A DNA stretch of 64,000 bases from Escherichia phage vB_EcoP_HC-25922. The stretch lies in sequence record OQ555404.1, one strand, 5' to 3'. The notes under the pieces were generated by a model. That model was not told where the DNA came from. It made no database searches and saw nothing but the letters and a program-made list of their open reading frames with translations. Below, in pieces: positions 32,326 to 45,352 of this stretch. The position numbers and the translations under genes are program-made. The first letter of the stretch is position 1. Each line of letters starts with the position of its first letter.

Positions 32326-32637
32326 CTACTTCTCCACCACAAAGAGGTTAACTTCAATGAAAGTTTCGTATTGTGTTGACTCCTGCTTACGGGTGTAGTA
32401 GAAATGACGACCTTCTAATGCACCTCCGTACTGAGTGGCACATCTTTTAACCATCTCTTTTATCACATCTACAACTGATTCGCCTTTCCACGGACGTAAC
32501 CCCTGAGTTGGGACTTTTGCTGTACAGGTTACTTGTGTGTAACCTACATCTTGTAGAGATATCTCAAGAATCAGCTTTGCCCAAGCATCAAAATTAAGCT
32601 TGGGGTTATATTTAACTTCAGTTTTGATATCAATCAT
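32326..32637 (-). CDS. hypothetical protein
   Basis: 103 aa ORF directly downstream of the DNA polymerase gene. Confidence 0.4.
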   Translation of the reverse strand: MIDIKTEVKYNPKLNFDAWAKLILEISLQDVGYTQVTCTAKVPTQGLRPWKGESVVDVIKEMVKRCATQYGGALEGRHFYYTRKQESTQYETFIEVNLFVVEK

Positions 32638-34484
32638 TAGTGAGTATGATTCCAGTTTAATCCAATCTTACAATCTGATGCAAGAGGACATTCCATCTTG
32701 AGGTATTCCCCTGCTTTACGAACACATTCTTCAGTGAGGGTACGAAGTTTGTTAACATCATCACGATGTACAGTGAACTGTCCTTCATCATGCATGTCAA
32801 TAACCTTCGCACAACGAACACCATCCCGCTCAATCCATTTATTGAGGAATAGCATTGCATACTTCATAACAATCGCCCCAGCGCTCTGTAAGAGTGTATT
32901 TAAGGCTTTATGGACCATAACCTTTCCAGTTGCATCTCTTCTCATTGTAATACGACGTCCATCCACACCGTAGATATATCCACTTTGCGCTTTCTCTGTC
33001 ATACGTTCAATAAGGATTGCAATACAAGGGTTCTCTGCTAAGAATCTTGCTCTCATGATAGCCCCTTCGTCAGAGCCACCACCTACAATACTTCCTAACT
33101 TAGCGTCACCTGCCCCATAGTTAAAGGCATAGATAAACGTTTTAGCATTATCACGAGTAGGAAGGCCAGCAAGTTTTTGGTTATGTGAGTGAATATCTCC
33201 TTCTAAAAGAATATCTCTATACATAACAGCAGAAGCTAGACCACGTTCAGCTTCTCGTTTCTTAGCCGGGTTGTTTTCTCGCTCTGCTTCAGCGAGCATC
33301 TCACGACATTCTTTAATAAGGTAGTGAGCTAGCATCCTCAGCTCAAGACCAGAGCCATCGTAACCTAAGAAGATTTCACGACCAGCAGGAACATAGAACT
33401 TATAGGCACCTACGGGTTTGTCTTTCTTGCCCGGTTTTCCCACTTCGTAGATAATGTTAGTACCCTTTCGTACGTAACACCCATCAGGGATATGGTTGGT
33501 AATGATGAAAGGATGGTTATGACTATCGTCTGAGGAATAGTCAGATTGAAAAAGACTGCGGCACTCGTGACCAAACAAACCGCGAGAAGGAATATTAACA
33601 ACAATGCGATGTTTAAAACGAAATGTCGGAGTAGCGCAGCTATTAGCTTCGGCGGACAACTTACCATCTTTACGTTCCTTGTCGATAAGCCCGCTAATCA
33701 AACCTAGCCTGTGAGCCGCTACAACGCGTCTCTTAAGCAAACTTCCTACACCCCCTAGCTCACCCCCAAGCCCCTCTTCAAGAGTCTCCTCAAGGTTTGT
33801 AGGGGCTGTGGGCCACTTGTTTGATGTAGCCAAAGCTTTTTTGATTTCATCAAAGGTTACAGGTTTCTTCCTATTCGGATTAAGACCTAAACCACTGACG
33901 TAGGCTTTCATGTAGTTGACAGTGTGATAACGGAAATGTTTATCCAAAAATCTTCGGATATCAGCATCTATCATCTCCGCTGTCTGTTTCTCTTTAGCAT
34001 TACCTCGAATCCAAGCAGAATACCATGCAGAGTATGTACCATACTTCTTCATAGCTCTACGGATTTCAAATGTATTCCAAGGTTTCTTAGAATAATTCCA
34101 CTCTGGAGGTATGAAGCCCTCATCCATCAAGGCTTCTTTAATACGTGCATCTTTCGATGGGTCGAAGTCTACATACTCAACGCAAGTAAACGCCCCACCG
34201 ATATCTTCTCTTTTAAGACCAACCCTATCGCAATAGAGCTGAGGCCACTTCTGTAAAGCACCTGATTTCTTAAAAGGCTTAGCATAAGTTGAACCATCCA
34301 CCCGCATTTTAGGGAGGAGAGGAATCAGTTCTTTATCAATATTGACAATAATCTCTTTGAGAAGGTGAACAAACCACCGAGCGTTTCTTCTGTTGAAGTT
34401 GACTCCATGCTTCGCTTGTTTTGAGATTATATCAGCGACTGTCATCTCCGTTATGAAAGGTAACTTATCAGGGTTATCCATCAC
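32637..34484 (-). CDS. DNA polymerase, family A, polymerase domain only
   Basis: motif A GYDGSGLELR, motif B RDNAKTFIYAFNYG, motif C VIDMHDEG; no 3'-5' exonuclease motifs in this 615-aa ORF. Confidence 0.8.
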   Translation of the reverse strand: MMDNPDKLPFITEMTVADIISKQAKHGVNFNRRNARWFVHLLKEIIVNIDKELIPLLPKMRVDGSTYAKPFKKSGALQKWPQLYCDRVGLKREDIGGAFTCVEYVDFDPSKDARIKEALMDEGFIPPEWNYSKKPWNTFEIRRAMKKYGTYSAWYSAWIRGNAKEKQTAEMIDADIRRFLDKHFRYHTVNYMKAYVSGLGLNPNRKKPVTFDEIKKALATSNKWPTAPTNLEETLEEGLGGELGGVGSLLKRRVVAAHRLGLISGLIDKERKDGKLSAEANSCATPTFRFKHRIVVNIPSRGLFGHECRSLFQSDYSSDDSHNHPFIITNHIPDGCYVRKGTNIIYEVGKPGKKDKPVGAYKFYVPAGREIFLGYDGSGLELRMLAHYLIKECREMLAEAERENNPAKKREAERGLASAVMYRDILLEGDIHSHNQKLAGLPTRDNAKTFIYAFNYGAGDAKLGSIVGGGSDEGAIMRARFLAENPCIAILIERMTEKAQSGYIYGVDGRRITMRRDATGKVMVHKALNTLLQSAGAIVMKYAMLFLNKWIERDGVRCAKVIDMHDEGQFTVHRDDVNKLRTLTEECVRKAGEYLKMECPLASDCKIGLNWNHTH

Positions 34485-34497
34485 CCACTCCTTATAG

Positions 34498-34851
34498 TTA
34501 TTGGTATATTAAGTCTGTGAATGCTTGGTTGTCTTCAACAATATCTAAAGCTTCATATGAATCAGCCAATTCATCCACATAAAAGACTGCTGGAATATCT
34601 TCTGCTCGCTGTCTACGAGATTCCCTTTGTTCATTGATATTTCTTTGAACCTGTGCAAGTTTCATACCCCACACCTGCTCATACAACTCTGGATATTTGT
34701 CACTAACCACTACATAATTTCGAGCTGGTTGGTTTCTATTAATCTTCGCTGTCAACTCAATAAACTGGCGAAACTCTTGAATAGAGAGGTTGTCATGAAT
34801 ATTATCCCATTTGAGAACGCAGTGACGTTCTAGGCGTTGAGGTACTGGCAT
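34498..34851 (-). CDS. hypothetical protein
   Basis: 117 aa ORF. Confidence 0.4.
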   Translation of the reverse strand: MPVPQRLERHCVLKWDNIHDNLSIQEFRQFIELTAKINRNQPARNYVVVSDKYPELYEQVWGMKLAQVQRNINEQRESRRQRAEDIPAVFYVDELADSYEALDIVEDNQAFTDLIYQ

Positions 34852-34854
34852 AAC

Positions 34855-35112
34855 TTACTCCACTGTCGGGAATGGTTTTAGGTTGTTCATGGCTGTACGA
34901 ACATCAGCACAGATTTCAGGATCACGATAAGAGAGGAATTTACCATCCTTACCACGAATCATTACATTAGTCCGTGCTGTTTTATTAGGCAATAAAGAAA
35001 TCCCTCCAATAAGATGGTTGGTAGGGTGTTGTCCTTGATTAACCTTGTAGTCATGAGTCTGAGCGTCACCGTTAAAGAGATGATCACGAATTTGGATTAA
35101 GCTAATCTTCAT
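34855..35112 (-). CDS. small protein, paralog of 35114-35365
   Basis: shares TARTNV..RG.DGKF.S.RD....NLKPFP with its neighbour. Confidence 0.4.
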   Translation of the reverse strand: MKISLIQIRDHLFNGDAQTHDYKVNQGQHPTNHLIGGISLLPNKTARTNVMIRGKDGKFLSYRDPEICADVRTAMNNLKPFPTVE

Positions 35113-35113
35113 A

Positions 35114-35365
35114 TTATGCACCAAAGTTAGGGAAAGGTTTCAGATTTTCAATAGACTTAGCAATACGCTTAGGAACAGCCTTATCACGGAAGGAGATGAA
35201 CTTTCCATCAGGACCACGAAGGGCTACATTAGTACGAGCTGTTGTTTTGTTAAACTGAATCATCTCAACAGAGCTTGTAACATTTTCTACAGGAAAAGTA
35301 TAGCTCTCAGTTGTGTTCAGAGAAGGGAGGAAATCAGTTACAGTGATGTAAGTTACTTTAGACAT
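35114..35365 (-). CDS. small protein, paralog of 34855-35112
   Basis: same motif; start set at MSKV with AAGGT RBS. Confidence 0.4.
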   Translation of the reverse strand: MSKVTYITVTDFLPSLNTTESYTFPVENVTSSVEMIQFNKTTARTNVALRGPDGKFISFRDKAVPKRIAKSIENLKPFPNFGA

Positions 35366-35386
35366 ATTTATTACCTTAGGTTCTAT

Positions 35387-35416
35387 AAAAGAAAAGGCCA
35401 CCCGAAATGGGTAGCC
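35387..35416 (-). terminator. rho-independent terminator (minus strand)
   Basis: minus-strand GGCTACCCA-TTTC-GGGTGGCC followed by TTTTCTTTTAT. Confidence 0.55.
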
Positions 35417-35421
35417 TTATA

Positions 35422-35739
35422 TCAACTTGAGCTTAAAGCTCCTTTGCGACCGCCTGCTGATTTTCCAGCACGATCTCCACTTTTGCCGCCGTTCGAGCGA
35501 TTTCGAGAGACTGATTCAACACGTAAGTTACTTGACGCATTAGAACCTCCCGACTTGATTGATCGTTTGTGTCCAACATCTTTACCTCGGACAGCAGCTT
35601 TTCCATCGCGCTTTTCAACGATGCGACGTGCACGGTGGCGCTGAGCATCTCCGCTCTTGCTACCAACGCCGGTCTCACCCCTTGCGATTGCAGTTCTTCG
35701 TTCTTGTGCATAATCACGTTTCGCCTTATCGTTCATCAT
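35422..35739 (-). CDS. basic Gly/Lys/Arg-rich low-complexity protein (KGG-repeat-like)
   Basis: ATG with AAGGAG RBS 4-5 nt upstream; preferred over the overlapping GTG-initiated frame 35433-35717. Confidence 0.4.
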   Translation of the reverse strand: MMNDKAKRDYAQERRTAIARGETGVGSKSGDAQRHRARRIVEKRDGKAAVRGKDVGHKRSIKSGGSNASSNLRVESVSRNRSNGGKSGDRAGKSAGGRKGALSSS

Positions 35740-35771
35740 AACTCCTTAATATATCAGTGTACACTAAGGAG

Positions 35772-35780
35772 TATACATTA
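35772..35780 (-). promoter_or_regulatory. TAATGTATA promoter-like motif (minus strand)
   Basis: plus TATACATTA; 32 nt upstream of the start codon at 35739. Confidence 0.45.
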
Positions 35781-35783
35781 TGT

Positions 35784-36521
35784 TTATGATTTTTCAGATT
35801 CCATTGCTTTAACAATAGCTTTACAGAAACCTGAACGAACAATATCATCTGATTCGCCATCTACTAGAGCGGCAAATTCAAATAACTGGTGACGGTAGAT
35901 GAAATCAGTAGCCCAATCAAGACCGCTCTCACCACGCATGTCGTGCTGGTTAGTGTCCCCCATGCAGAACATCTGAGAGGTTTCACCAAGACGTGTCATG
36001 ATTGAATATGCTTCATCAGGAGTAGTGTTCTGGAACTCATCAACAATCACGATAGCATCGTTGAACGAGCGACCGCGTAGATATTCCAGAGGTACGAACT
36101 CAATATTACCATTACCTACTTGACATTCGTAGAAACCTTTACCGTAGCGCTGAGTAATAACATCAACGATTGGCATTAGGTATGGTTCAAACTTCTCACG
36201 AAGCCCACCGGGAAGTAATCCAAGACTATTACCCATACCAACAGCAGGTCGGCTTAGGATAATCTTCTCAATCTTCCCACTCTTCAGAGCATCAATCACT
36301 GTAGAAGTGATTACGAAGGTCTTACCACAACCAGCAGGAGCATCTGTGAATACAACCTGTTTGGTTTTAATTGCATCAAGCAGCTCACTCTGGAATTGGT
36401 TCTGAGGTACTACCGGCTTAGCAAGAACTACTTCTTCAAATTCCCGCTTTCCTTTCTTGGTGACGAGAGCTTCACGACGTAATTCTCTCCGTGATGCTTT
36501 CCGAGATTCTCTACGACTCAT
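35784..36521 (-). CDS. phoH: PhoH-like ATPase
   Basis: Walker A DAPAGCGKT and IVIVDEFQN Walker B-like segment in PhoH-like arrangement. Confidence 0.65.
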   Translation of the reverse strand: MSRRESRKASRRELRREALVTKKGKREFEEVVLAKPVVPQNQFQSELLDAIKTKQVVFTDAPAGCGKTFVITSTVIDALKSGKIEKIILSRPAVGMGNSLGLLPGGLREKFEPYLMPIVDVITQRYGKGFYECQVGNGNIEFVPLEYLRGRSFNDAIVIVDEFQNTTPDEAYSIMTRLGETSQMFCMGDTNQHDMRGESGLDWATDFIYRHQLFEFAALVDGESDDIVRSGFCKAIVKAMESEKS

Positions 36522-36699
36522 TTCCTACCTCCGTGTTCTTCATATAAGAAGCTACAGGATTTACACTCTGAGCAATGGATACCTATAACCTTAATTTCGA
36601 CAAACTTCTTATTCTTCCCTTTAGTCGGGGAGCCTTTGGCAAGCTCCCGTATTACTTTCGAGTCCAAATGGAGAAGAGTTGATTCACATTTAAAACATT

Positions 36700-37020
36700 T
36701 CAGATTGATTTGTCCTTATGTAAACGGTATACTTCAGTAGCCATACAAGCTATACGCTCGTCATGTGGGAGATGCATACCAGTAGAGCCGTTCCATCCTT
36801 CGAACTCTGAATCAAAGAATCCAATAGGCTCGGGATACATCTCTTGCAAGGTGGTTAAGTCATCAGCCACTTGTTGCCACTTATCGTCAGACCAGATTGG
36901 GTCATCCAACCAATAATACAAATAGGAGTGGATAAGCATCTGTGTTCTATGTCGTTTAATCACTTCAGCAGGACTGATTTCATTTCCGTTACCAGTCCTA
37001 AATGTATTATTGTTGATCAT
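36700..37020 (-). CDS. hypothetical protein
   Basis: 106 aa ORF. Confidence 0.4.
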   Translation of the reverse strand: MINNNTFRTGNGNEISPAEVIKRHRTQMLIHSYLYYWLDDPIWSDDKWQQVADDLTTLQEMYPEPIGFFDSEFEGWNGSTGMHLPHDERIACMATEVYRLHKDKSI

Positions 37021-37496
37021 TCCAAAACCCTTTCTTCTAAATCATAAAAGATTTGATTTGTCCCATTATTCTCAACAAGCACTGTTCCATTATCTAGCAG
37101 GGTAGCAACTTGGGAATAAGGAATGTTCTTTAACATCAGAGCATTAATGGTCGGCTTGTTTTTGAAGTAAGCGACAGGCTCAACATAGAAGGAAATCCCA
37201 CGACTTCCTTTAATTGGGGTGCTTGAAGATAGAACCCAAATTGTTTCTGGCTTGTCTATTTCCTTTTCAACACCAACCTCAACAAGAGAGTCAGCAGCGA
37301 AACCTACAGGACGCCTAGAAGAACCAAGCAACCGAACATATCCCGGTAATTTTGACATATTAGACCAACTACCAGTGTTTTCATTAAACACAGGTCTTAC
37401 ATCACCATATGCCCAAACCAGATTATCATAGTCACGGGCTATGTATTTAACCCAATCAGGAACATCATACTCCCTTCCTTCAAAAATAGCTTTCAT
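37017..37496 (-). CDS. hypothetical protein
   Basis: 159 aa ORF. Confidence 0.4.
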   Translation of the reverse strand: MKAIFEGREYDVPDWVKYIARDYDNLVWAYGDVRPVFNENTGSWSNMSKLPGYVRLLGSSRRPVGFAADSLVEVGVEKEIDKPETIWVLSSSTPIKGSRGISFYVEPVAYFKNKPTINALMLKNIPYSQVATLLDNGTVLVENNGTNQIFYDLEERVLE

Positions 37497-37805
37497 TTAG
37501 ATAACCTTGTGCTTATAGATGTTAGGGTTGTAGTAATGCAACCAGTTTATGTATTGCTTCTGTTCGAGGTAGTGCCTGCAATCATGACAAAAAGCATGAC
37601 CCAAACCTGTTTCCTCGTTCAGCTTGAAATTGATAAGAAGCTTCTGCTTTCGACAGAAGCTACATGCTTTAGTGGGCTTCACGTAATGCATCCCAAGAGA
37701 TTGGATATATTTTACGAAGCTCTTCATCAATGGTTGATGCGAACACTCGTACTTCGTACTGAGCATGGTCTGACAGTCGCTGACGACACAACTCTGACCA
37801 ACCAT
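37497..37805 (-). CDS. Cys/His-rich small protein (possible zinc-binding); start uncertain
   Basis: CSFCRK...CHDCRH; N-terminus overlaps the ThyX-like gene so the true start is probably internal. Confidence 0.3.
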   Translation of the reverse strand: MVGQSCVVSDCQTMLSTKYECSHQPLMKSFVKYIQSLGMHYVKPTKACSFCRKQKLLINFKLNEETGLGHAFCHDCRHYLEQKQYINWLHYYNPNIYKHKVI

Positions 37806-38319
37806 ATAGAGAACCGGTCCATACCCACTCAGTGATCATACCCTGAGGTAATACGAATCGAGCTTGTTCTGGAGCAATGAACTTAATCAATTCATCATAC
37901 GACTCAAGAGCTGTTTCATATGCTCGGTTAATCAGAACTAGTGCAGAGTTTTGTGCTCCTGTGGTGAGGAGATTCCCTGCACCTGCATGGAGGTCCGAAG
38001 GTCTTTCAAAAATCTCTTTAGGGATGAAGAGTTCAACTGCTCCATCTTTATACCGCCGGGACATTTCGTTCCACGAGAATCCAACTTGATGCTTGCCCAG
38101 CTGTCTCGCAATTGCGATTGGCGCTTTGCATCGGAAGCTAATTGTCGGATGGCGGAATGGTGTGACATGCTTTTCTCTGGCAAGGAACTTGATAAGGCGT
38201 TCATCTCGTTCATTTAACTCTCCTTCACGAGTAACCCCAAAGGAAACTCGAGCTGCATTAACAACAGATTTATCAGAACCCATTGCTTCAATTAGTGTTG
38301 CTTGTAATTGTTCGTTCAT
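37669..38319 (-). CDS. ThyX-family flavin-dependent thymidylate synthase homolog with non-canonical signature motif
   Basis: AARVSF, TPF.H...F..KAPI..ARQ, S.NE.S.RY, ARFVLP and DHAQ blocks align with ThyX; the RHR of the signature is KHQ here. Confidence 0.6.
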   Translation of the reverse strand: MNEQLQATLIEAMGSDKSVVNAARVSFGVTREGELNERDERLIKFLAREKHVTPFRHPTISFRCKAPIAIARQLGKHQVGFSWNEMSRRYKDGAVELFIPKEIFERPSDLHAGAGNLLTTGAQNSALVLINRAYETALESYDELIKFIAPEQARFVLPQGMITEWVWTGSLYGWSELCRQRLSDHAQYEVRVFASTIDEELRKIYPISWDALREAH

Positions 38320-38333
38320 CCTTGAATTCTTCC

Positions 38334-38549
38334 TTAGTAATGAATCTTTTTATAAATCAGGTTGCTTCCACTTTCTGTTTCAATCCCTTTCTGGATTGTA
38401 ATCTTAGAAGCACCGGTATTAGCAATTTTTAAAGCTCGTTTAAAGCGGCGAGCCTCTCTCCGTGTTGTGTATGAGGAGAAGCTAGGGATTGTACTATCAA
38501 AATTAAACCACTTAACTACCCAAAAAGTAATCCAAGGTTTCTTTTCCAT
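38334..38549 (-). CDS. small protein, TRQEAR...YY family paralog 1
   Basis: TRREARRFKR...IYKKIHY shared with 40415-40630 and 40630-40842. Confidence 0.4.
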   Translation of the reverse strand: MEKKPWITFWVVKWFNFDSTIPSFSSYTTRREARRFKRALKIANTGASKITIQKGIETESGSNLIYKKIHY

Positions 38550-38550
38550 A

Positions 38551-38826
38551 TTAAATACCTTTCAGAGCTGTATCTAAAAACGCACGGAGGTTTGATTCAG
38601 TTTGCATACCGGACAAGCTGTAGTGAGCACCACTGTTCATGTTAGGAACCACAAAGGCTGGGATACTGCGAACACCATATTCAATGGCTCGCTCTCGACC
38701 ATCACCTTCAGAGATATTTACTTCTTCAACTTCTACGTTGTAATCAGCTACAACTTTCTTAAACACAGGAGCCATAGCTGCACATGGAGCACAGGAATTA
38801 CTATAAAACTTAATTACTTTACTCAT
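38551..38826 (-). CDS. thioredoxin/glutaredoxin-like protein
   Basis: CAPC active-site motif in thioredoxin-fold context; start set at MSKVIKFY. Confidence 0.55.
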   Translation of the reverse strand: MSKVIKFYSNSCAPCAAMAPVFKKVVADYNVEVEEVNISEGDGRERAIEYGVRSIPAFVVPNMNSGAHYSLSGMQTESNLRAFLDTALKGI

Positions 38827-39016
38827 TTTATTCCTTGTTAATAAACAGATTGATATGACGCTGGGTAGCAGGAACAACAATAAAAGACTTATACTGCCCT
38901 TTTGCTAAATCATGAGCAATCTTCTTTGTCTGACCAAGACCCATCACACAGCCACTAACGATAATGGCATGTGCTTGTAATTCTTCAGGTAGGTTTAGTT
39001 TCACTCTTTGGGTTCC

Positions 39017-39202
39017 TTATAGCATACAAAGAATAATAACAAGAGGTAGTGTTATAGCAAAATGTACCAGAACAACACTACCCAGCTTGATAGCTTTAAC
39101 ATCCTCTTCTGCTGGGTTTTCTTTAATTGCTAAATTTCGAGCTTTATATATAACAGTACCAACTATTAACGACCACACGGCCCACACAATCAGTGAAATC
39201 AT
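39017..39202 (-). CDS. small membrane protein
   Basis: 61 aa with two hydrophobic segments. Confidence 0.3.
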   Translation of the reverse strand: MISLIVWAVWSLIVGTVIYKARNLAIKENPAEEDVKAIKLGSVVLVHFAITLPLVIILCML

Positions 39203-39455
39203 ATCAAACCCTCATGCAGTCAACAGGTGGAGAAGGAAAGGAATGACAACAGAGAAGACTACCAGAGCAATGCTGCCATGTTTAATGGGTTTAGCGTCAT
39301 TCGGGTTCTCTTTAAGCATCTGTTTCTGAGCTACATAAACGATACCGCCAACAAAAAATTGCCCATACAGACCATACGATTGCTGAAAACATACTCATAT
39401 CCTTATAAAGAAGTTCGCCCCACCTCTTGAACAAAGAGACAGGGCGGAGGTTTGA

Positions 39456-40031
39456 TTAGTAAGACACATCACCACTGGAGTGGGACATGTTGCTCTTGAC
39501 GAAGTAACAGAACTTGCCAAGACCTTCATTAATTTCTTGAAGCATACTCTGGTCCACTGGATAGGTGCACAAGTCTGAATCAAACTCATCCATCTTCTCA
39601 ATGATACACATAAGAGTCATGCACATGTCGGAAAGCATACCGTCCATGTCAAGATCAGCGTTACCTTCTCGGAACCAAGCATGACCTAAATAATTACTAG
39701 CAGTAGCATCCACTTTAACACAATGAAAGCGCATACGCTCTGCTATTCGGTCGCCTGCCTCACGAGCATAATCTTCTAGTTCATCGAACATACCATGAAC
39801 ACCTTGGAAACCAGCTCCAGAGACGTTCCAGTGGTAGTTCTTTGCTTTGATGTGTAGAAGTTCAAGGTTAGCTTGCACACCACACAAGATGTGTTCTAAA
39901 CTGTTACCGCTAATCAGTTTATTCATTCCCTCAAGACGAGAGATAGAAGAGTCAGTAGTAGAGAATGGGTTGCTAGAACCCACTCGTGTTAGTTCTGGTA
40001 AGTCGAAGACATTATTATGCATTAGGTGCAT
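39456..40031 (-). CDS. Dps/ferritin-like protein
   Basis: AKNYHWNVSGAGFQGVHGMFDELEDYAREAGDRIAERM parallels the Dps ferroxidase-site helices. Confidence 0.55.
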   Translation of the reverse strand: MHLMHNNVFDLPELTRVGSSNPFSTTDSSISRLEGMNKLISGNSLEHILCGVQANLELLHIKAKNYHWNVSGAGFQGVHGMFDELEDYAREAGDRIAERMRFHCVKVDATASNYLGHAWFREGNADLDMDGMLSDMCMTLMCIIEKMDEFDSDLCTYPVDQSMLQEINEGLGKFCYFVKSNMSHSSGDVSY

Positions 40032-40362
40032 CCCCTTCTAAGTTAGTTGAATTAGCTACATTACGAGCAATGTTATCCATGACCTGCTGTGTAATAACAA
40101 TACAATTCTGAGGGTCTACTGATTTAGAACGCCCCATCTCAGGGTCATAGACTTTGACTCGCTTGGCTGTTGAGCCAGTAACTTGCAACACTTTGAGAAG
40201 ATAGCCTTGGTTTCCAATAGACCATGCAACAACATCACGATTCTTGATATAACGACCAAGCATGTCACGATGATAGAACTGCTGCATAACTTTAGCTTTG
40301 CTAATCTCTTCAGATGGCGGGGCCACTTTACTCAAATCTAACATAACTCTCTCCTGTTTCAT
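40015..40362 (-). CDS. hypothetical protein
   Basis: 115 aa ORF. Confidence 0.4.
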   Translation of the reverse strand: MKQERVMLDLSKVAPPSEEISKAKVMQQFYHRDMLGRYIKNRDVVAWSIGNQGYLLKVLQVTGSTAKRVKVYDPEMGRSKSVDPQNCIVITQQVMDNIARNVANSTNLEGDAPNA

Positions 40363-40414
40363 ACAATATTCTTATACTGTATATACATTTGAGAGTTATC
40401 ATATCTACTACCAA

Positions 40415-40630
40415 CTAGTAATAAACCTTGCTGGATATGAATCCAGCACTGTTATGGATATTTTCAATCCAACGATGAATCTCCACCTTTTCAGCGATTC
40501 CTAAAGCTTTTGTAGCTTTTATAGTTTTCTTAGCAAGACGAGCCTCTTGTCTTGTGTTGAATAATTGAATACAATCACCACCAAGAGCTTTGTTAGCCCA
40601 TTTAGTACGAACTGCCCATAATTTATCCAT
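40415..40630 (-). CDS. small protein, TRQEAR family paralog 2
   Basis: NTRQEARLAKK...FISSKVYY. Confidence 0.4.
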   Translation of the reverse strand: MDKLWAVRTKWANKALGGDCIQLFNTRQEARLAKKTIKATKALGIAEKVEIHRWIENIHNSAGFISSKVYY

Positions 40631-40842
40631 TAGTAATGTACCTTTCCGCTGATATAGAAACGACCTGATTTAAAGTCTTGAGCTTTGTGGATAGTGATCT
40701 TATTAATTGTGCTTTCACAACTTAATAAGAACTTCTTATGAGCGCGAGCTTCTTGACGGGTATTCCTAATACCCATTGACTCTGTACCACTGCTCCAGTG
40801 AATACGAACTACCCAACGTCTTTTCATTGTTCCAAACTCCAT
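40630..40842 (-). CDS. small protein, TRQEAR family paralog 3
   Basis: NTRQEARAHKK...FYISGKVHY. Confidence 0.4.
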   Translation of the reverse strand: MEFGTMKRRWVVRIHWSSGTESMGIRNTRQEARAHKKFLLSCESTINKITIHKAQDFKSGRFYISGKVHY

Positions 40843-41033
40843 TATCTGTCAACCGATTTAGGGACAAACTGCATTACACAGACCTGACTACGAGGGAGAT
40901 TTATTTCACAAGCGGCTCTTCTCGTCTCAATCTTAACGCTAGAATCTGGACCAACGTTAGATATAAATACTCCCATAGCAAATGCCCCAACTACAAAACC
41001 TATAGCTAAGTAAGTAGCTTTTTCTTCTTTCAT
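40842..41033 (-). CDS. small membrane protein
   Basis: 63 aa with hydrophobic N-terminal segment. Confidence 0.3.
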   Translation of the reverse strand: MKEEKATYLAIGFVVGAFAMGVFISNVGPDSSVKIETRRAACEINLPRSQVCVMQFVPKSVDR

Positions 41034-41038
41034 CTTGG

Positions 41039-41572
41039 TTATACACCCTTAGATGCAACTACACCATTACTGCCGTTGTATCGACCCTTCACTGCATAAG
41101 AGTCATCACCAGCGTGAGAGTGTTCGAACATAACCATTTGACCAACACGCATCCCAGCACGAACTCGTAAGCTATGATTATGGGTAACGTTATGAAATTC
41201 AAAGGTTAGTTTACTGCTGTTAAACCCTGCATCAGCCCAACCAGCATGGAGGTGGTTTAAACCACAACGAGCCATTGAGGAGCGAAGTACAAACAGGCTT
41301 GAGATGTTATCTGGAAGGTTAAACTCTTCCATTGAGTGCGCTAAGAAGAATTGCCCCGGAGTGATAACAATACCATCTTCAGGGATTTTTACTTCTTTCC
41401 ACTTGAGGTTTTCTTTAGCATCAATGTCAACAATTCCGTCAGCCTGTTCTTCAACAAGGATAGTATCACCAATACGGATATCCACGCTAGCAGCGTTAAC
41501 ATATTTATGCTCCGCATCTAAAAAGCCATTATCAATAACGCTGTGTAATTCTTGAGAACCTAAAAGACTCAT
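41039..41572 (-). CDS. dcd: dCTP deaminase family protein
   Basis: ASVDIRIG and RSSMARCGL blocks and the C-terminal YNGSNGVVAS region parallel bacterial Dcd. Confidence 0.65.
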   Translation of the reverse strand: MSLLGSQELHSVIDNGFLDAEHKYVNAASVDIRIGDTILVEEQADGIVDIDAKENLKWKEVKIPEDGIVITPGQFFLAHSMEEFNLPDNISSLFVLRSSMARCGLNHLHAGWADAGFNSSKLTFEFHNVTHNHSLRVRAGMRVGQMVMFEHSHAGDDSYAVKGRYNGSNGVVASKGV

Positions 41573-43032
41573 GAGTTTCTGTTTCCTTGTACAGATGATG
41601 CCAAATTATTAATCATGTTACGAGCTGTTTCACGAGATAGTGTAACACCTGCTAAGTTGTTATGAAGCTCACCAGATAGCTCACGAGCAGCAGCTCGAAG
41701 TTCTGTACCAAGTGTAGTATCGGAGTGAGCCAAACCATTACGACGACTATAAGGTCGAGGAGCTTCGTTAGCGTCATTAGCCAATGATGCAAAACCAATA
41801 TGAGCAGCTTCACGAGCCGCTATAGTTGACACTCGATCTTCCGTAGGGGTTGGCAAATCACCAACTTCTACACGTTCTATATCACCAGCACGTAGACCCT
41901 GAACGACTGAGCTTACTGTTTCCCATGAACGACGAGAACGCTGTAAATCACCCATTGACGGAGAAGAAGCAGGTCGAACAGTTACTCCACCTGTATCATG
42001 AGTGACATGCCATGTACGAGTATCCATTCCAGAAGAGCGTGCACTACCAAAACTGCCAGTGAAAGTGTCACGAGGTGCCATTGTAGGAGGAACTGCGAAT
42101 CTTTCCTGTTGCCAAGAATCGCGTCTGTTAGTTCCCGGAGTCCAAGGCTGCGTGATTGCTTCAGCACCTATAGTGGTTAATCCGCTAGACCATTCTGTCT
42201 GTAGGTTAACTTCCTCGTCCAGATAACTACGACCCCTTTCCTGAGGAATGTTTAATATAGTTTCCATCATCTTCAGGGTATAATGACGACGCTGATTCTG
42301 ATATAAATTTACACCAGCCATAGGTCCAACTAAATCACTAATCAGGTGAACTTCTGGCTCACCGAAAGCTCCCATTGCAAGGTGCATATATTCGATAGAA
42401 CTGCTATAAACTGCAACAGTTGCTTCAGGCCACTTTTTGTGAACATACTTCATTTCACGACTAGATACCACAGGAATGTCACGAGTGTATGACATTGCAA
42501 ACAAACCTTCGTTTGACACATACATGTCATCAAGAGACATGAACCCCTGACAGATCATAGGAAAGCGACGGCTTAAAGTATCCATATCCAAAGGTAGATT
42601 AATCATCATCTGGATTTTAACTTGATCAATCTCAATTTCCAGAATCTCTTGGAAAGTGAAAAGTGATTCAGTATAGGTTGTTCCACTGATAGGCTGAACT
42701 AGTCGAGATGTAACTTGAAGCCCCTTACTCTCTGTCCAAGACAAGAAGTTGTCAAGGAATAGTGCAGCATTACTTACGTTAGCAGGGCTGTTTTCCTGAC
42801 GAGTGTTCCAACGGAACCCTCCTTGAACTAGGAAGATATCAACATCATTCGGAGTTCGATTTTGGAAGAACGTATCACGGATAGCACCACCTGCAATGAC
42901 AGGATAGATACCATCAGGGACTACGTTATCTCTGATCAGATTGCGAATCAGATCAAGCCCTACGCTGAGGGCTTCTCCTTCTTGAAGGTTTAATTCAGAC
43001 AATGGAATCTTAATCATTTCTACATTTTCCAA
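41569..43032 (-). CDS. Pol-beta superfamily nucleotidyltransferase, CCA-adding/poly(A) polymerase-like head
   Basis: AGGAIRD-x9-DVD matches the GGxVRD...DxD head motif of class II tRNA nucleotidyltransferases; overlaps the exonuclease gene by 13 nt. Confidence 0.5.
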
Positions 43033-43568
43033 TTTAGAGATGGGGGATTCTTATAATCAAATCCAGCCATTTGACAAAGACACATGTAAACTTTAACTGT
43101 CAAGTTAACGTCTTGCTCACAATAGGTGAACATGTCTTCAGTGAATGCGTCCCATGCCTCCTCCTGTTCTCCATAATCTCCTTTCAGCTCCCCAAGAAAC
43201 TCGCCCCATTGTTTGAGGCCGTGACCACGAGGGCCATGTCTAGGGTCGCCTTTGGGGTATTCTGGACTATCACCAATACGGTCAGGCTTGAGATATCTAC
43301 TCAGGCACAAAGTATCGAAGACGTTAAAGCGAAAAGGTATCACATGAGAATAAAACTTAAACAAAGCAGGAAGGTCAAAATCAATAATATTGTGACCTAT
43401 TACTACATCAGCTTCTTTCAGTTTGTGTAGTGCTTCTTCAATTTGGTGAGGGCGATACCCCCACCGCTCTCCAGATAATACATCAAATATCCAGATACAC
43501 CAGACATTCTGAATACCATCATAGAGATTATCCCCCTCGATATCAAACGCATACAGTTTCTTTACCAC
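43020..43568 (-). CDS. DEDDy 3'-5' exonuclease (DnaQ-like), likely proofreading partner of the polymerase
   Basis: Exo I YAFDIEGD, Exo II HNIIDFD, Exo III YCEQD. Confidence 0.6.
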
Positions 43569-45352
43569 GGACGTGCCTCCCCTTCTTGTGCAAGTAAGGA
43601 AGCTGCATCCTCTCCATTGGTAACGGTAAAAGGATGCTCTTCATCAACTTCATGATCTTCTCGTTCTACAAGACGACCTGTTTCATTGATGTATTTGGTA
43701 TAGCAAACCCCTGTCTGTCCATAGTTACGCTCTTTGAGCAGTCGTATGATTGACAAGTTTTTACCTAACCCATCCGCTTGTTTATTACGTTCAAAACCAA
43801 TAATACACTGACACCAGCGCATCAATGAACGTGAACCAGTAAACTGTACTTCTTTAACCTGACCACCTTCTTCGTGGGGTGCACCACCTGCCGGAGCGTT
43901 CAAGTGAGATAATACAAAAGCAGTGAAGTCTAATTCCTTACACATACCAGCAAGCTCTGAAGCAATCTTGCTGATTTCTGTGTTTACCTCAGATGGGGTT
44001 AAGTGAGATACCAATGCAGTGATGTTATCAAGAATGATAAATTTACACTGATTCTCAACTACCCAAAAGCGAATACACTGCTTAATGTCTTCCCACTCGT
44101 TCTGCCCAAAGTTGTCATACAAGAAAAACTTATCAGCGTATCGAAGTGCTTCATCTCGTAGCTGGCTTTCTTCGTACTCAACATCTGGTCGGTGGAATGG
44201 AATAGATGCAGATTTACCTGCAATGTTCTTAACAGACATGCCTACCTTCTCTTCCAAGAAGAAGCCACCACCATTAAAACCATGCTCAAGGCAAAGCCAT
44301 GCTACTAGTTCGTGTGCGATTAAGGTTTTACCTGAACCAACACCACCGCCGATTGCAACCATCTCTCCCCAACGAATACCAAAGGTCATGTCGTTAAGAG
44401 TTTTCCACGGATAAGGAATACCCCATTCCGCTTTCTTCAGAGCATCTTCGAGGCAATCAAAAACTGTAACAGCTCCAGCAGGGGATTCCCGCTTAGCTGA
44501 ATATTTCAGATTGTTGAAAAGCTCTTGACCTCTCCCTGCAAGTAACATGTCGTTTGCATCTTTGATTTCCTTTTCTTGTCCGTTATAAGTGAACGTACCT
44601 TTTGGAATCCTTGCAAACTTAACATGCGGGTACAGAGAACGACCCTTAGTTAAAGCAATCTCACCTGCATCATCATTGTCCATGCAGAGTACAATCTCCT
44701 CGAAACCATTAATAAAATCACGGTTTCTTGATAATACAGAAGAGATTGAACCTGCACCGAACGGAAGAGAGACGCAAGCAGGTTTGATGTTAGTTGCGTT
44801 TGTAAACGCGGTAAGTACGTGGAACCCAGACATACAAGAGAGAGGATCTTCAAAGATGAAGAGTTTCTTGTTGTATACGTCACCACGTTGTGCTTGAGCC
44901 ATACCAAACAAGTCGGCTTCTTTCACATTACCTACATAATAGAACTTCTTGCTGTCTAGAAGTTTTACTTCATATCCAACAATGTTCCCATCACGTTCAC
45001 GAGGGAAGAAGTAGCTGTCAGGAGTTTGACCATCTGTTTGGCTTAAACCGATACGGCATCCATAACGTTCAGATACAGCTTTAGGGATTAAGCGACGAGT
45101 CAACTCTCCCTGAGGAAGCTCTAAGCAATCGTCTAAGACTTCTCGGAGTTCTTCAGGGGACAGCTCTTTCTTTTCATTAGGAGTGGGCGTCGTTCCTTTC
45201 TCGAAGATTTCATACGCACCACATCTGTTACATGAACCCCACTCCTCACCGGACTCTTCATTTCGGAAGAGAATCATGTGATTGCGGGTCTTATCACGAC
45301 CATGAGAGATACACTCTTTACAGCCCGTGTCTCCCAAAATGATCTTTGACAT
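43562..45352 (-). CDS. primase-helicase (T7 gp4-like)
   Basis: N-terminal Cys4 zinc-binding region (CKEC...CNRC), Walker [10 protein letters not shown] in DnaB-like helicase context. Confidence 0.8.

Follow-up and report, generated by a model that had tools for sequence, protein, structure and literature searches.

Organization of the replication gene region

The window analysed here, a stretch of 64,000 nt from Escherichia phage vB_EcoP_HC-25922 (sequence record OQ555404.1), belongs to a phiEco32-like coliphage of the Suseptimavirus that is approximately 98.8% identical to vB_EcoP-101114UKE3, and it falls within the Kuravirus-like group (Gordonclarkvirinae). The two open reading frames named in a preliminary description of this DNA, one for a polymerase (32637-34484) and one for an exonuclease (43020-43568), were both confirmed at these coordinates on the minus strand. 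In the order of transcription, the region contains the following genes.

43562..45352, minus strand: T7 gp4-like primase/helicase (phrog_239, E 6e-175; Pfam matches to DnaB_C and Toprim)
43020..43568, minus strand: standalone 3'-5' exonuclease of the DEDDy type, 182 aa, starting with GTG, and GGAGG 7 nt before it
34482..43019, minus strand: intervening block of 22 genes (annotated in RefSeq for the relative with 98.8% identity; Pfam scans)
38551..38826, minus strand, within this block: phage thioredoxin, 91 aa (PF00085, E 4e-12; CAPC read from the sequence)
32637..34481, minus strand: exonuclease-less family A (T7 gp5-like) DNA polymerase, 614 aa, read from an ATG

As read directly from the sequence, the last 7 nt of the primase/helicase gene, with its stop, are shared with the start of the exonuclease gene. 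The polymerase gene follows roughly 8.5 kb downstream of the exonuclease gene; the distance had been put at about 9 kb, and the gap as measured is 8,538 nt, with all 22 intervening genes on one strand. They include genes for a nucleotidyltransferase, a dCTP deaminase, a Dps/ferritin-like protein, the thioredoxin and ThyX, as well as a protein with an NAD-ligase Ia domain, PhoH and small unknown proteins. The exonuclease and polymerase genes keep the N-to-C order of the corresponding parts of T7 gp5 on the same strand, and the window holds one of each, with no second copy of either domain.

A family A polymerase without an exonuclease domain

The polymerase gene is 100% identical on the DNA level to a RefSeq gene named 'DNA-directed DNA polymerase', and the same gene is present in about 85 phage records. 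While the location of the reading frame stands as first described, its length needs a small correction. Counted from GTG the frame comprises 615 codons, the size given earlier, but the ATG at 34481, one codon inside the GTG, is the better start, because AAGGAG lies 6 nt upstream of it and the identical RefSeq gene begins there. The three polymerase motifs lie on the gene as follows.

33336..33359, minus strand: motif A DGSGLELR, residues 375-382, with the catalytic aspartate D375; aligns with T7 D475 in 'DASGLELR'
33114..33155, minus strand: motif B RDNAKTFIYAFNYG, residues 443-456, with R443, K447, Y451 and Y455; aligns with T7 'RDNAKTFIYGFLYG'
32784..32792, minus strand: motif C HDE, residues 564-566 (H564, D565 and E566); aligns with T7 'VHDE'

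Motifs A, B and C of the T7 gp5 subgroup of family A are thus all present with their catalytic residues. Among 54 polymerase homologues, D375, L379, E380 and R382 of motif A are invariant, as are R443, K447, Y451 and Y455 of motif B and H564 of motif C, while D565 and E566 are conserved in at least 90%. Y451 is the counterpart of T7 Y526. The assignment is further supported by profile and fold matches to the palm, fingers and thumb polymerase domain. PF00476 matched with E 4.5e-24 and 85.5 bits (cutoff 34.3), the protein covers positions 837-1233 of phrog_17, and it aligns end to end with residues 206-704 of T7 gp5 (hhalign, probability 100%, E 2e-56). An AF2 model of the polymerase reached a pLDDT of 91.2, and its top 27 PDB matches were all T7 gp5 (Foldseek, E 3e-26).

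The N-terminal 3'-5' exonuclease domain of the T7 gp5 subgroup is absent from this chain, whose alignment begins at T7 residue 206. Since the whole protein is taken up by the alignment to T7 gp5 206-704, there is no room for such a domain. An exonuclease domain hidden in the polymerase reading frame, whose discovery the preliminary description had named as a refutation, was sought and not found by any approach used. Pfam gave no match to PF01612 or RNase_H even at E<=1, a comparison of the 54-homologue polymerase profile with a 26-homologue exonuclease profile gave a probability of 0.1%, and the T7 alignment and the fold model agree; a hidden domain is therefore rejected. The best 106 homologues of the polymerase are likewise without an exonuclease domain. 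The earlier statement that this is a family A polymerase lacking an exonuclease accordingly holds by sequence, profile and fold.

A standalone exonuclease next to the primase/helicase gene

The 182-aa protein encoded next to the primase/helicase gene carries the Exo I-III motifs, as had been described, and aligns with residues 2-199 of T7 gp5 (hhalign, E 1.3e-22). The positions marked as invariant below were scored over 26 standalone homologues.

43536..43544, minus strand: Exo I, D9-I-E11; aligns with T7 D5 and E7; D9, I10 and E11 invariant
43374..43391, minus strand: Exo II, N60-IIDF-D65; D65 aligns with T7 D65; H59, N60 and D65 invariant
43110..43124, minus strand: Exo III, Y149-CEQ-D153; D153 aligns with T7 D174; Y149, C150 and D153 invariant
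43023..43061, minus strand: conserved C-terminal tail, homologous to the T7 linker between the exonuclease and polymerase domains

The complete DEDDy set (D9, E11, D65, Y149 and D153) is retained in 26/26 of these homologues. All homologues that were found (36/36, 105-208 aa) are standalone proteins. The match to PF01612 is barely above the cutoff (E 3e-5, 24.2 bits versus 23.6), a point against the assignment, but all other searches gave decisive results. Phrog_403 (E 3e-37) and phrog_38876 (E 3e-67), both named 'DNA polymerase exonuclease subunit', also matched the protein, and in the fused-polymerase profile phrog_17 it covers positions 670-826, directly ahead of the part covered by the polymerase. 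The protein is the N-terminal domain of a T7-type polymerase in detached form. An AF2 model (pLDDT 90.8) shows an RNase H-like alpha/beta fold that matches the exonuclease domain of polymerases, and its top 27 PDB matches were again all T7 gp5 (E 6e-10 to 3e-7). The tail deserves separate mention. F170, P175 and P176 are conserved in at least 90% of the standalone homologues though they lie outside the catalytic core, and 'NPPSLNWK' in the tail pairs with 'FPPEIDFT' at T7 192-199 (hhalign). We infer that the tail is a candidate docking element.

An exonuclease of this kind might also be a free-standing enzyme that forms no stable complex with the polymerase, for example one engaged in intermolecular editing after the polymerase has dissociated, in end processing during recombination or repair, or in the breakdown of host DNA; coupled proofreading would then in effect be missing from the polymerase. 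Such a role would be in line with the 8.5 kb between the two genes, which are not translationally coupled to each other, and with the fact that DEDD exonucleases elsewhere act alone, RNase T, TREX-like and Rrp6 folds being among the weaker structural matches. Moreover, we found no report of an interaction between the two proteins in the searchable literature. However, the protein is closest, by sequence, profile and fold, to the polymerase-attached exonuclease domains of T7-like phages, whose E-values surpass those of any free exonuclease by 4-5 orders of magnitude; the PDB matches that follow T7 gp5 have E>1e-4. The linker-like tail, moreover, is conserved without being required for catalysis. 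We consider a free exonuclease unlikely.

Two halves of a T7-type polymerase

Together, the exonuclease (T7 2-199) and the polymerase (T7 206-704) cover T7 gp5, which is the best match among solved structures for both halves, by sequence as well as by fold. The break falls after T7 residue 199 and before residue 206, in the 6-residue interdomain linker. In both halves the catalytic residues are strongly conserved across homologues and the active sites are intact. The split arrangement is real, and the matches on which it is based are far beyond chance.

The T7 system is similar in its motifs A, B and C (the tyrosine of motif B among them), in the DEDDy site, and in a gp4-type primase/helicase gene upstream. 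In contrast, T7 gp5 is a single chain of 704 aa, while here the chain is broken and 8.5 kb are inserted at the break. Compared with T7, the polymerase described here also contains additional segments, around residues 138-215, 320-368 and 390-420. The difference from single-chain T7-type polymerases, to which attention had been drawn before, is therefore genuine, but it has already been published and annotated.

A split gene could in principle be mimicked by an error of assembly, by a frameshift in the polymerase or by a pseudogene. We found no point in support of such an artefact or of decay. Against it stand the roughly 85 records that share the polymerase gene, the full length and conservation of both halves with their intact active sites, the 8.5 kb of well-formed genes between them, and the recurrence of the split in distant lineages. 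We therefore reject this explanation, to which we assign virtually no probability.

Distribution of the split arrangement

The phiEco32/Kuravirus-like group shows the same split, with a separate polymerase and a separate 3'-5' exonuclease (Swiss-Prot DPOL_BPE32 and EXO74_BPE32), and no difference of substance to the phage studied here. In its relatives SU7, ECBP2 and PAS59, an HNH-containing insertion interrupts motif C of the polymerase gene, which is not the case in this phage. The split has been published for all Kuravirus-like phages as well as for phiEco32 and the LUZ24 group, and its first report is credited to the 2008 phiEco32 genome paper (PMC3517423). The name given to the small protein in PHROGs and RefSeq is 'DNA polymerase exonuclease subunit'. 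The arrangement is thus ordinary and already known rather than new.

In the LUZ24 group (Bruynoghevirus) the genes are named 'DNA polymerase part I / II / III'. LUZ24 resembles the phage described here in having a primase/helicase, a standalone exonuclease ('part I'), small genes and an exonuclease-less polymerase, the LUZ24-group proteins being 41-44% (polymerase) and 32% (exonuclease) identical to those of this phage. It differs in a shorter gap (2.3 kb, 8 genes) and in a polymerase that is ~70 aa shorter and is also interrupted elsewhere by an intron that contains an endonuclease. The order of primase/helicase, exonuclease, gap and polymerase recurs in LUZ24, in Proteus phage Privateer (gap of 5.6 kb) and in a 92-kb metagenomic contig (5.5 kb), and the gap exceeds 10 kb in one metagenomic contig. 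In every lineage examined the exonuclease is accompanied by an exonuclease-less polymerase, which speaks further against an exonuclease that acts on its own. As to a single or repeated fission, two trees gave different pictures: in a BLOSUM62 neighbour-joining tree the eight fused relatives were nested inside the exonuclease-less set; in a tree from a gap-trimmed alignment the exonuclease-less set was monophyletic, with a bootstrap support of 9%.

LUZ24, where the two genes overlap by 17 nt, keeps the adjacency of helicase and exonuclease genes, as do Privateer and contig L007. Together with the 7-nt overlap seen here, this might indicate that the primase/helicase is the main carrier of the exonuclease into the replisome, in place of a T7-like docking on the polymerase. 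Ancestry explains the adjacency equally well, however, as in T7 gene 4 is followed by gene 5 with the exonuclease encoded in its 5' part, and no helicase-binding element is evident in the sequence. Recruitment by the helicase therefore seems very improbable.

T7 uses the thioredoxin of its host, while this phage has a thioredoxin gene of its own, and by analogy to T7 its product is a possible candidate for the processivity partner of the polymerase. In Privateer and in contig L007, too, the gap that separates the exonuclease gene from the polymerase gene contains a thioredoxin gene, and the hypothesis of thioredoxin as processivity partner has already been published for Privateer (PMC7881722).

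Probable proofreading in trans

We propose that a T7 gp5-type gene was broken in the linker that joins the 3'-5' exonuclease domain to the polymerase domain. The exonuclease half would have stayed directly behind the primase/helicase gene, to which it is probably translationally coupled, and small genes and genes of nucleotide metabolism, ~8.5 kb in all, now separate it from the polymerase half. The 182-aa exonuclease would dock on the polymerase at the position of the T7 exonuclease domain via its linker-like C-terminal tail and, once docked, may edit mismatched primer ends as a non-covalent subunit, in a replisome that would also include the gp4-like primase/helicase and perhaps the thioredoxin of the phage. 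Supply of proofreading in trans, as the preliminary description had suggested, appears to be the most likely function, because the DEDDy site is intact and invariant, the linker motif has been retained, and co-occurrence and gene order are conserved. For the account as a whole, that is a split T7 gp5-type gene whose exonuclease docks as a non-covalent proofreading subunit, we estimate a probability of about 0.75. In the searchable literature, we found no biochemical studies of family A polymerases that are split.

A functional analogy is offered by E. coli DNA polymerase III, in which the DEDD exonuclease DnaQ (epsilon) is separate and binds DnaE (alpha) non-covalently. The analogy does not extend beyond function, since DnaE belongs to family C and the polymerase described here to family A, and the split has an independent origin in each.

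A point against the docking account is that the exonuclease gene would be coupled to the helicase and not to the polymerase gene, so that the two halves may be made in unequal amounts. One could go further and speculate that the exonuclease is truly dissociable and its amount set by the coupling to the primase/helicase, which would allow adjustable or conditional editing, or that it is tethered through the helicase, and that the break point has served as a long-lived landing site for nucleotide-metabolism genes. The gap sizes compared with this landing site in mind are 2.3 kb in LUZ24, 5.5 kb in Privateer-like phages, 8.5 kb here and >10 kb in one metagenomic relative. We regard this extension as distinctly improbable.

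For genome annotation there is nothing new to be gained, as the split has been described since 2008 and is captured in PHROGs and RefSeq names. Biochemical characterisation could yield a naturally exonuclease-free T7-like polymerase with an add-on editor, and this polymerase carries a tyrosine at the T7 position that governs the acceptance of dideoxynucleotides. It could also show how an exonuclease site and a polymerase site communicate when they are not covalently joined. In this arrangement, nature would have turned the proofreading domain of a family A replicase into a subunit of its own.

Exonuclease-less polymerase

The preliminary description gave a family A polymerase with motifs A, B and C and without an exonuclease domain, and this was borne out by Pfam, by alignment to T7 gp5 and by profile comparison.

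32637-34484, minus strand: polymerase ORF, present in the window sequence
D375-GSGLELR: polymerase motif A, conserved in homologues
R443-DNAK-TFIY451-AFNY455-G: polymerase motif B, conserved in homologues
H564-D-E: polymerase motif C, conserved in homologues

The ORF described as 615 aa is present, but the ATG at 34481, with AAGGAG 6 nt upstream, is a likelier start than the GTG at 34484 and gives 614 aa. PF00476 was the sole Pfam family detected (residues 363-612, E 4.5e-24), and no exonuclease family was matched by the polymerase even at E<=1. A profile of 54 homologues matched T7 gp5 residues 206-704 end to end (hhalign probability 100%, E 2e-56), the best 27 PDB matches of a confident AlphaFold2 model (pLDDT 91.2) were T7 gp5 without exception, and the polymerase profile did not match the exonuclease profile (probability 0.1%). 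None of these four comparisons revealed a cryptic exonuclease domain in the polymerase, the finding that would have refuted the preliminary description. Compared to T7 gp5 the polymerase carries three inserted segments at residues about 138-215, 320-368 and 390-420, which account for its extra length; a degenerate exonuclease domain was rejected as the source. High-confidence modelling makes the first insert helical, the second beta-rich and the third helical; homologues of the LUZ24 type, which are shorter (about 545 aa), presumably lack part of them.

A separate observation concerns close relatives: the polymerase genes of SU7, ECBP2 and PAS59 contain an insertion of 607 bp that carries an HNH endonuclease ORF and falls precisely at the junction of the H564 and D565 codons in motif C.

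465-1049 of Escherichia phage SU7 (locus L005, NC_070980): region of the HNH-ORF insertion; window equivalent between 32789 and 32790

A sub-threshold match to the Rfam group I intron RF00028 (26.3 bits, E 6e-4) adjoins the HNH ORF. The gene is uninterrupted in the window. LUZ24 carries an intron elsewhere in this gene.

Standalone exonuclease

43020-43568, minus strand: exonuclease ORF, 182 aa; GTG start with GGAGG 7 nt upstream

The separate 182-aa ORF with Exo residues, reported next to the primase-helicase gene, was recovered by PHROG and T7 alignment, and it shares the final 7 nt of the primase/helicase gene (43562-45352). Tethering of the exonuclease through the helicase is nevertheless quite improbable. 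PF01612 was matched weakly (E 3e-5) and the PHROG families "DNA polymerase exonuclease subunit" strongly (phrog_403, E 3e-37; phrog_38876, E 3e-67). On the fused-polymerase profile phrog_17 the exonuclease aligned at 670-826 and the polymerase directly after, at 837-1233. The exonuclease profile aligned to T7 gp5 residues 2-199 (E 1.3e-22), placing D9, E11, D65 and D153 on T7 D5, E7, D65 and D174; these four, together with N60 and Y149, do not vary in 26 standalone homologues. T7 gp5 also provided the best 27 PDB matches of the AlphaFold2 model (pLDDT 90.8), ahead of every other exonuclease by 4-5 orders of magnitude. Each domain occurs in a single copy within the window, and that the split is an artefact or a pseudogene has next to no probability.

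Break point and intervening genes

Between them the two proteins span T7 gp5 from residue 2 to 199 and from 206 to 704, which places the break inside the short interdomain linker. The C-terminal tail of the exonuclease, outside the catalytic core, aligns with T7 "FPPEIDFT" and contains F170, P175 and P176, each at least 90% conserved. We infer that the tail is a candidate docking element. An exonuclease acting freely, without a stable complex with the polymerase, is an unlikely alternative to a two-subunit enzyme, though a likelier one than a helicase tether.

Read in the direction of transcription, the primase/helicase gene is followed by the exonuclease gene, then by 8,538 nt holding 22 annotated genes, and then by the polymerase gene. 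This is the order of T7, in which gene 4 precedes gene 5, except that a large block has been inserted where gene 5 passes from one domain-coding part to the other. The block encodes a nucleotidyltransferase, dCTP deaminase, a Dps/ferritin-like protein, thioredoxin, ThyX, PhoH, a standalone NAD-ligase Ia domain and small unknown genes. Four genes of the block are listed here.

41569-43032, minus strand: nucleotidyltransferase, 487 aa, phrog_12715, directly after the exonuclease gene
39456-40031, minus strand: Dps/ferritin-like protein
38551-38826, minus strand: thioredoxin, 91 aa, CAPC motif, between the exonuclease and polymerase genes
36700-37020, minus strand: NAD-ligase Ia domain protein, 106 aa, annotated hypothetical

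The nucleotidyltransferase had no Pfam match and has a long, low-complexity C-terminal half with abundant Ser, Arg, Thr and Gly; a gene at its position is absent from Proteus phage Privateer and the 92-kb metagenomic contig L007. Both of these hold a thioredoxin in the same relative place as the window, and for that of Privateer a role as T7-like polymerase processivity factor was proposed as a hypothesis only (PMC7881722). The RefSeq "integrase" gp069 of NC_070982 at 39456-40031 matches only Ferritin/Dps (PF00210, E 7e-8), and its label looks like a misannotation; a Dps/ferritin gene lies at the same relative position in Privateer and two metagenomic relatives. The 106-aa protein is a standalone Ia (NAD-binding) domain of NAD+-dependent DNA ligase (PF22745, E 8e-34), to which no ligase catalytic domain is joined.

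Relatives and closest record

All 36 exonuclease homologues found were standalone (105-208 aa), and none of the 106 best polymerase homologues, mostly 490-618 aa, had an exonuclease domain; a few of about 440-460 aa look like fragments. The comparison with related phages that had been proposed showed the same order as in the window in LUZ24 (primase/helicase gp24, exonuclease gp25 "part I", 2.3 kb, polymerase gp34 "part II"), in Privateer (5.6-kb gap) and in the 92-kb contig (5.5-kb gap); a further metagenomic relative has its exonuclease >10 kb upstream of the polymerase. Among fused proteins, the nearest (P0107-P0118, about 600-637 aa) showed 38-44% identity, confined to the C-terminal 60-71% of the query polymerase. 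Of the neighbour-joining trees, the one from the trimmed alignment made the exonuclease-less forms monophyletic, as a single fission event would predict, but with only 9% bootstrap support.

At the DNA level the polymerase gene shows 100% identity to its counterpart in the phiEco32-like podovirus Escherichia phage vB_EcoP-101114UKE3 (NC_070982; Gordonclarkvirinae, Suseptimavirus). Over 17-28 kb around both genes the identity is 98.2-98.8% with indels, and the window is therefore a close relative with a different sequence; no identical record was present in the phage collection searched. Specifically, window 19637-47485 showed 98.2% identity over 27.8 kb (451 mismatches, 36 gap openings), which, set against the identical polymerase gene, points to mosaic or recombinant relationships among members of the genus. 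RefSeq names the polymerase of NC_070982 "DNA-directed DNA polymerase" (gp053) and the exonuclease "DNA polymerase" (gp076), and the exonuclease of Privateer is entered in its record as "DNA polymerase exonuclease subunit", with reference to Swiss-Prot EXO74_BPE32.

Probable two-subunit replicase

The split was rightly observed, with matches far beyond what chance would give, and it is a known arrangement that public annotation already records. Separate exonuclease and polymerase genes have been published for phiEco32, for the LUZ24 group and for all Kuravirus-like phages, and PMC3517423 attributes the first description to the phiEco32 genome paper of 2008. We found no biochemical characterisation of the exonuclease-polymerase pair in the literature. 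The best-supported reading, to which we assign a probability of roughly three in four, is a two-subunit T7-type replicase. It draws on both halves being homologous to T7 gp5, on intact and conserved active sites, on the conserved linker-like tail, and on co-occurrence and gene order kept across lineages. The exonuclease subunit would dock non-covalently at the position of the T7 exonuclease domain and edit mismatched primer ends, and the replisome would be completed by the gp4-like primase/helicase, possibly with the phage thioredoxin. Both the physical association and the editing in trans are predicted, and the original interpretation of proofreading in trans is reasonable, if unproven. As a split polymerase, the pair is typical of the phiEco32/LUZ24 type.
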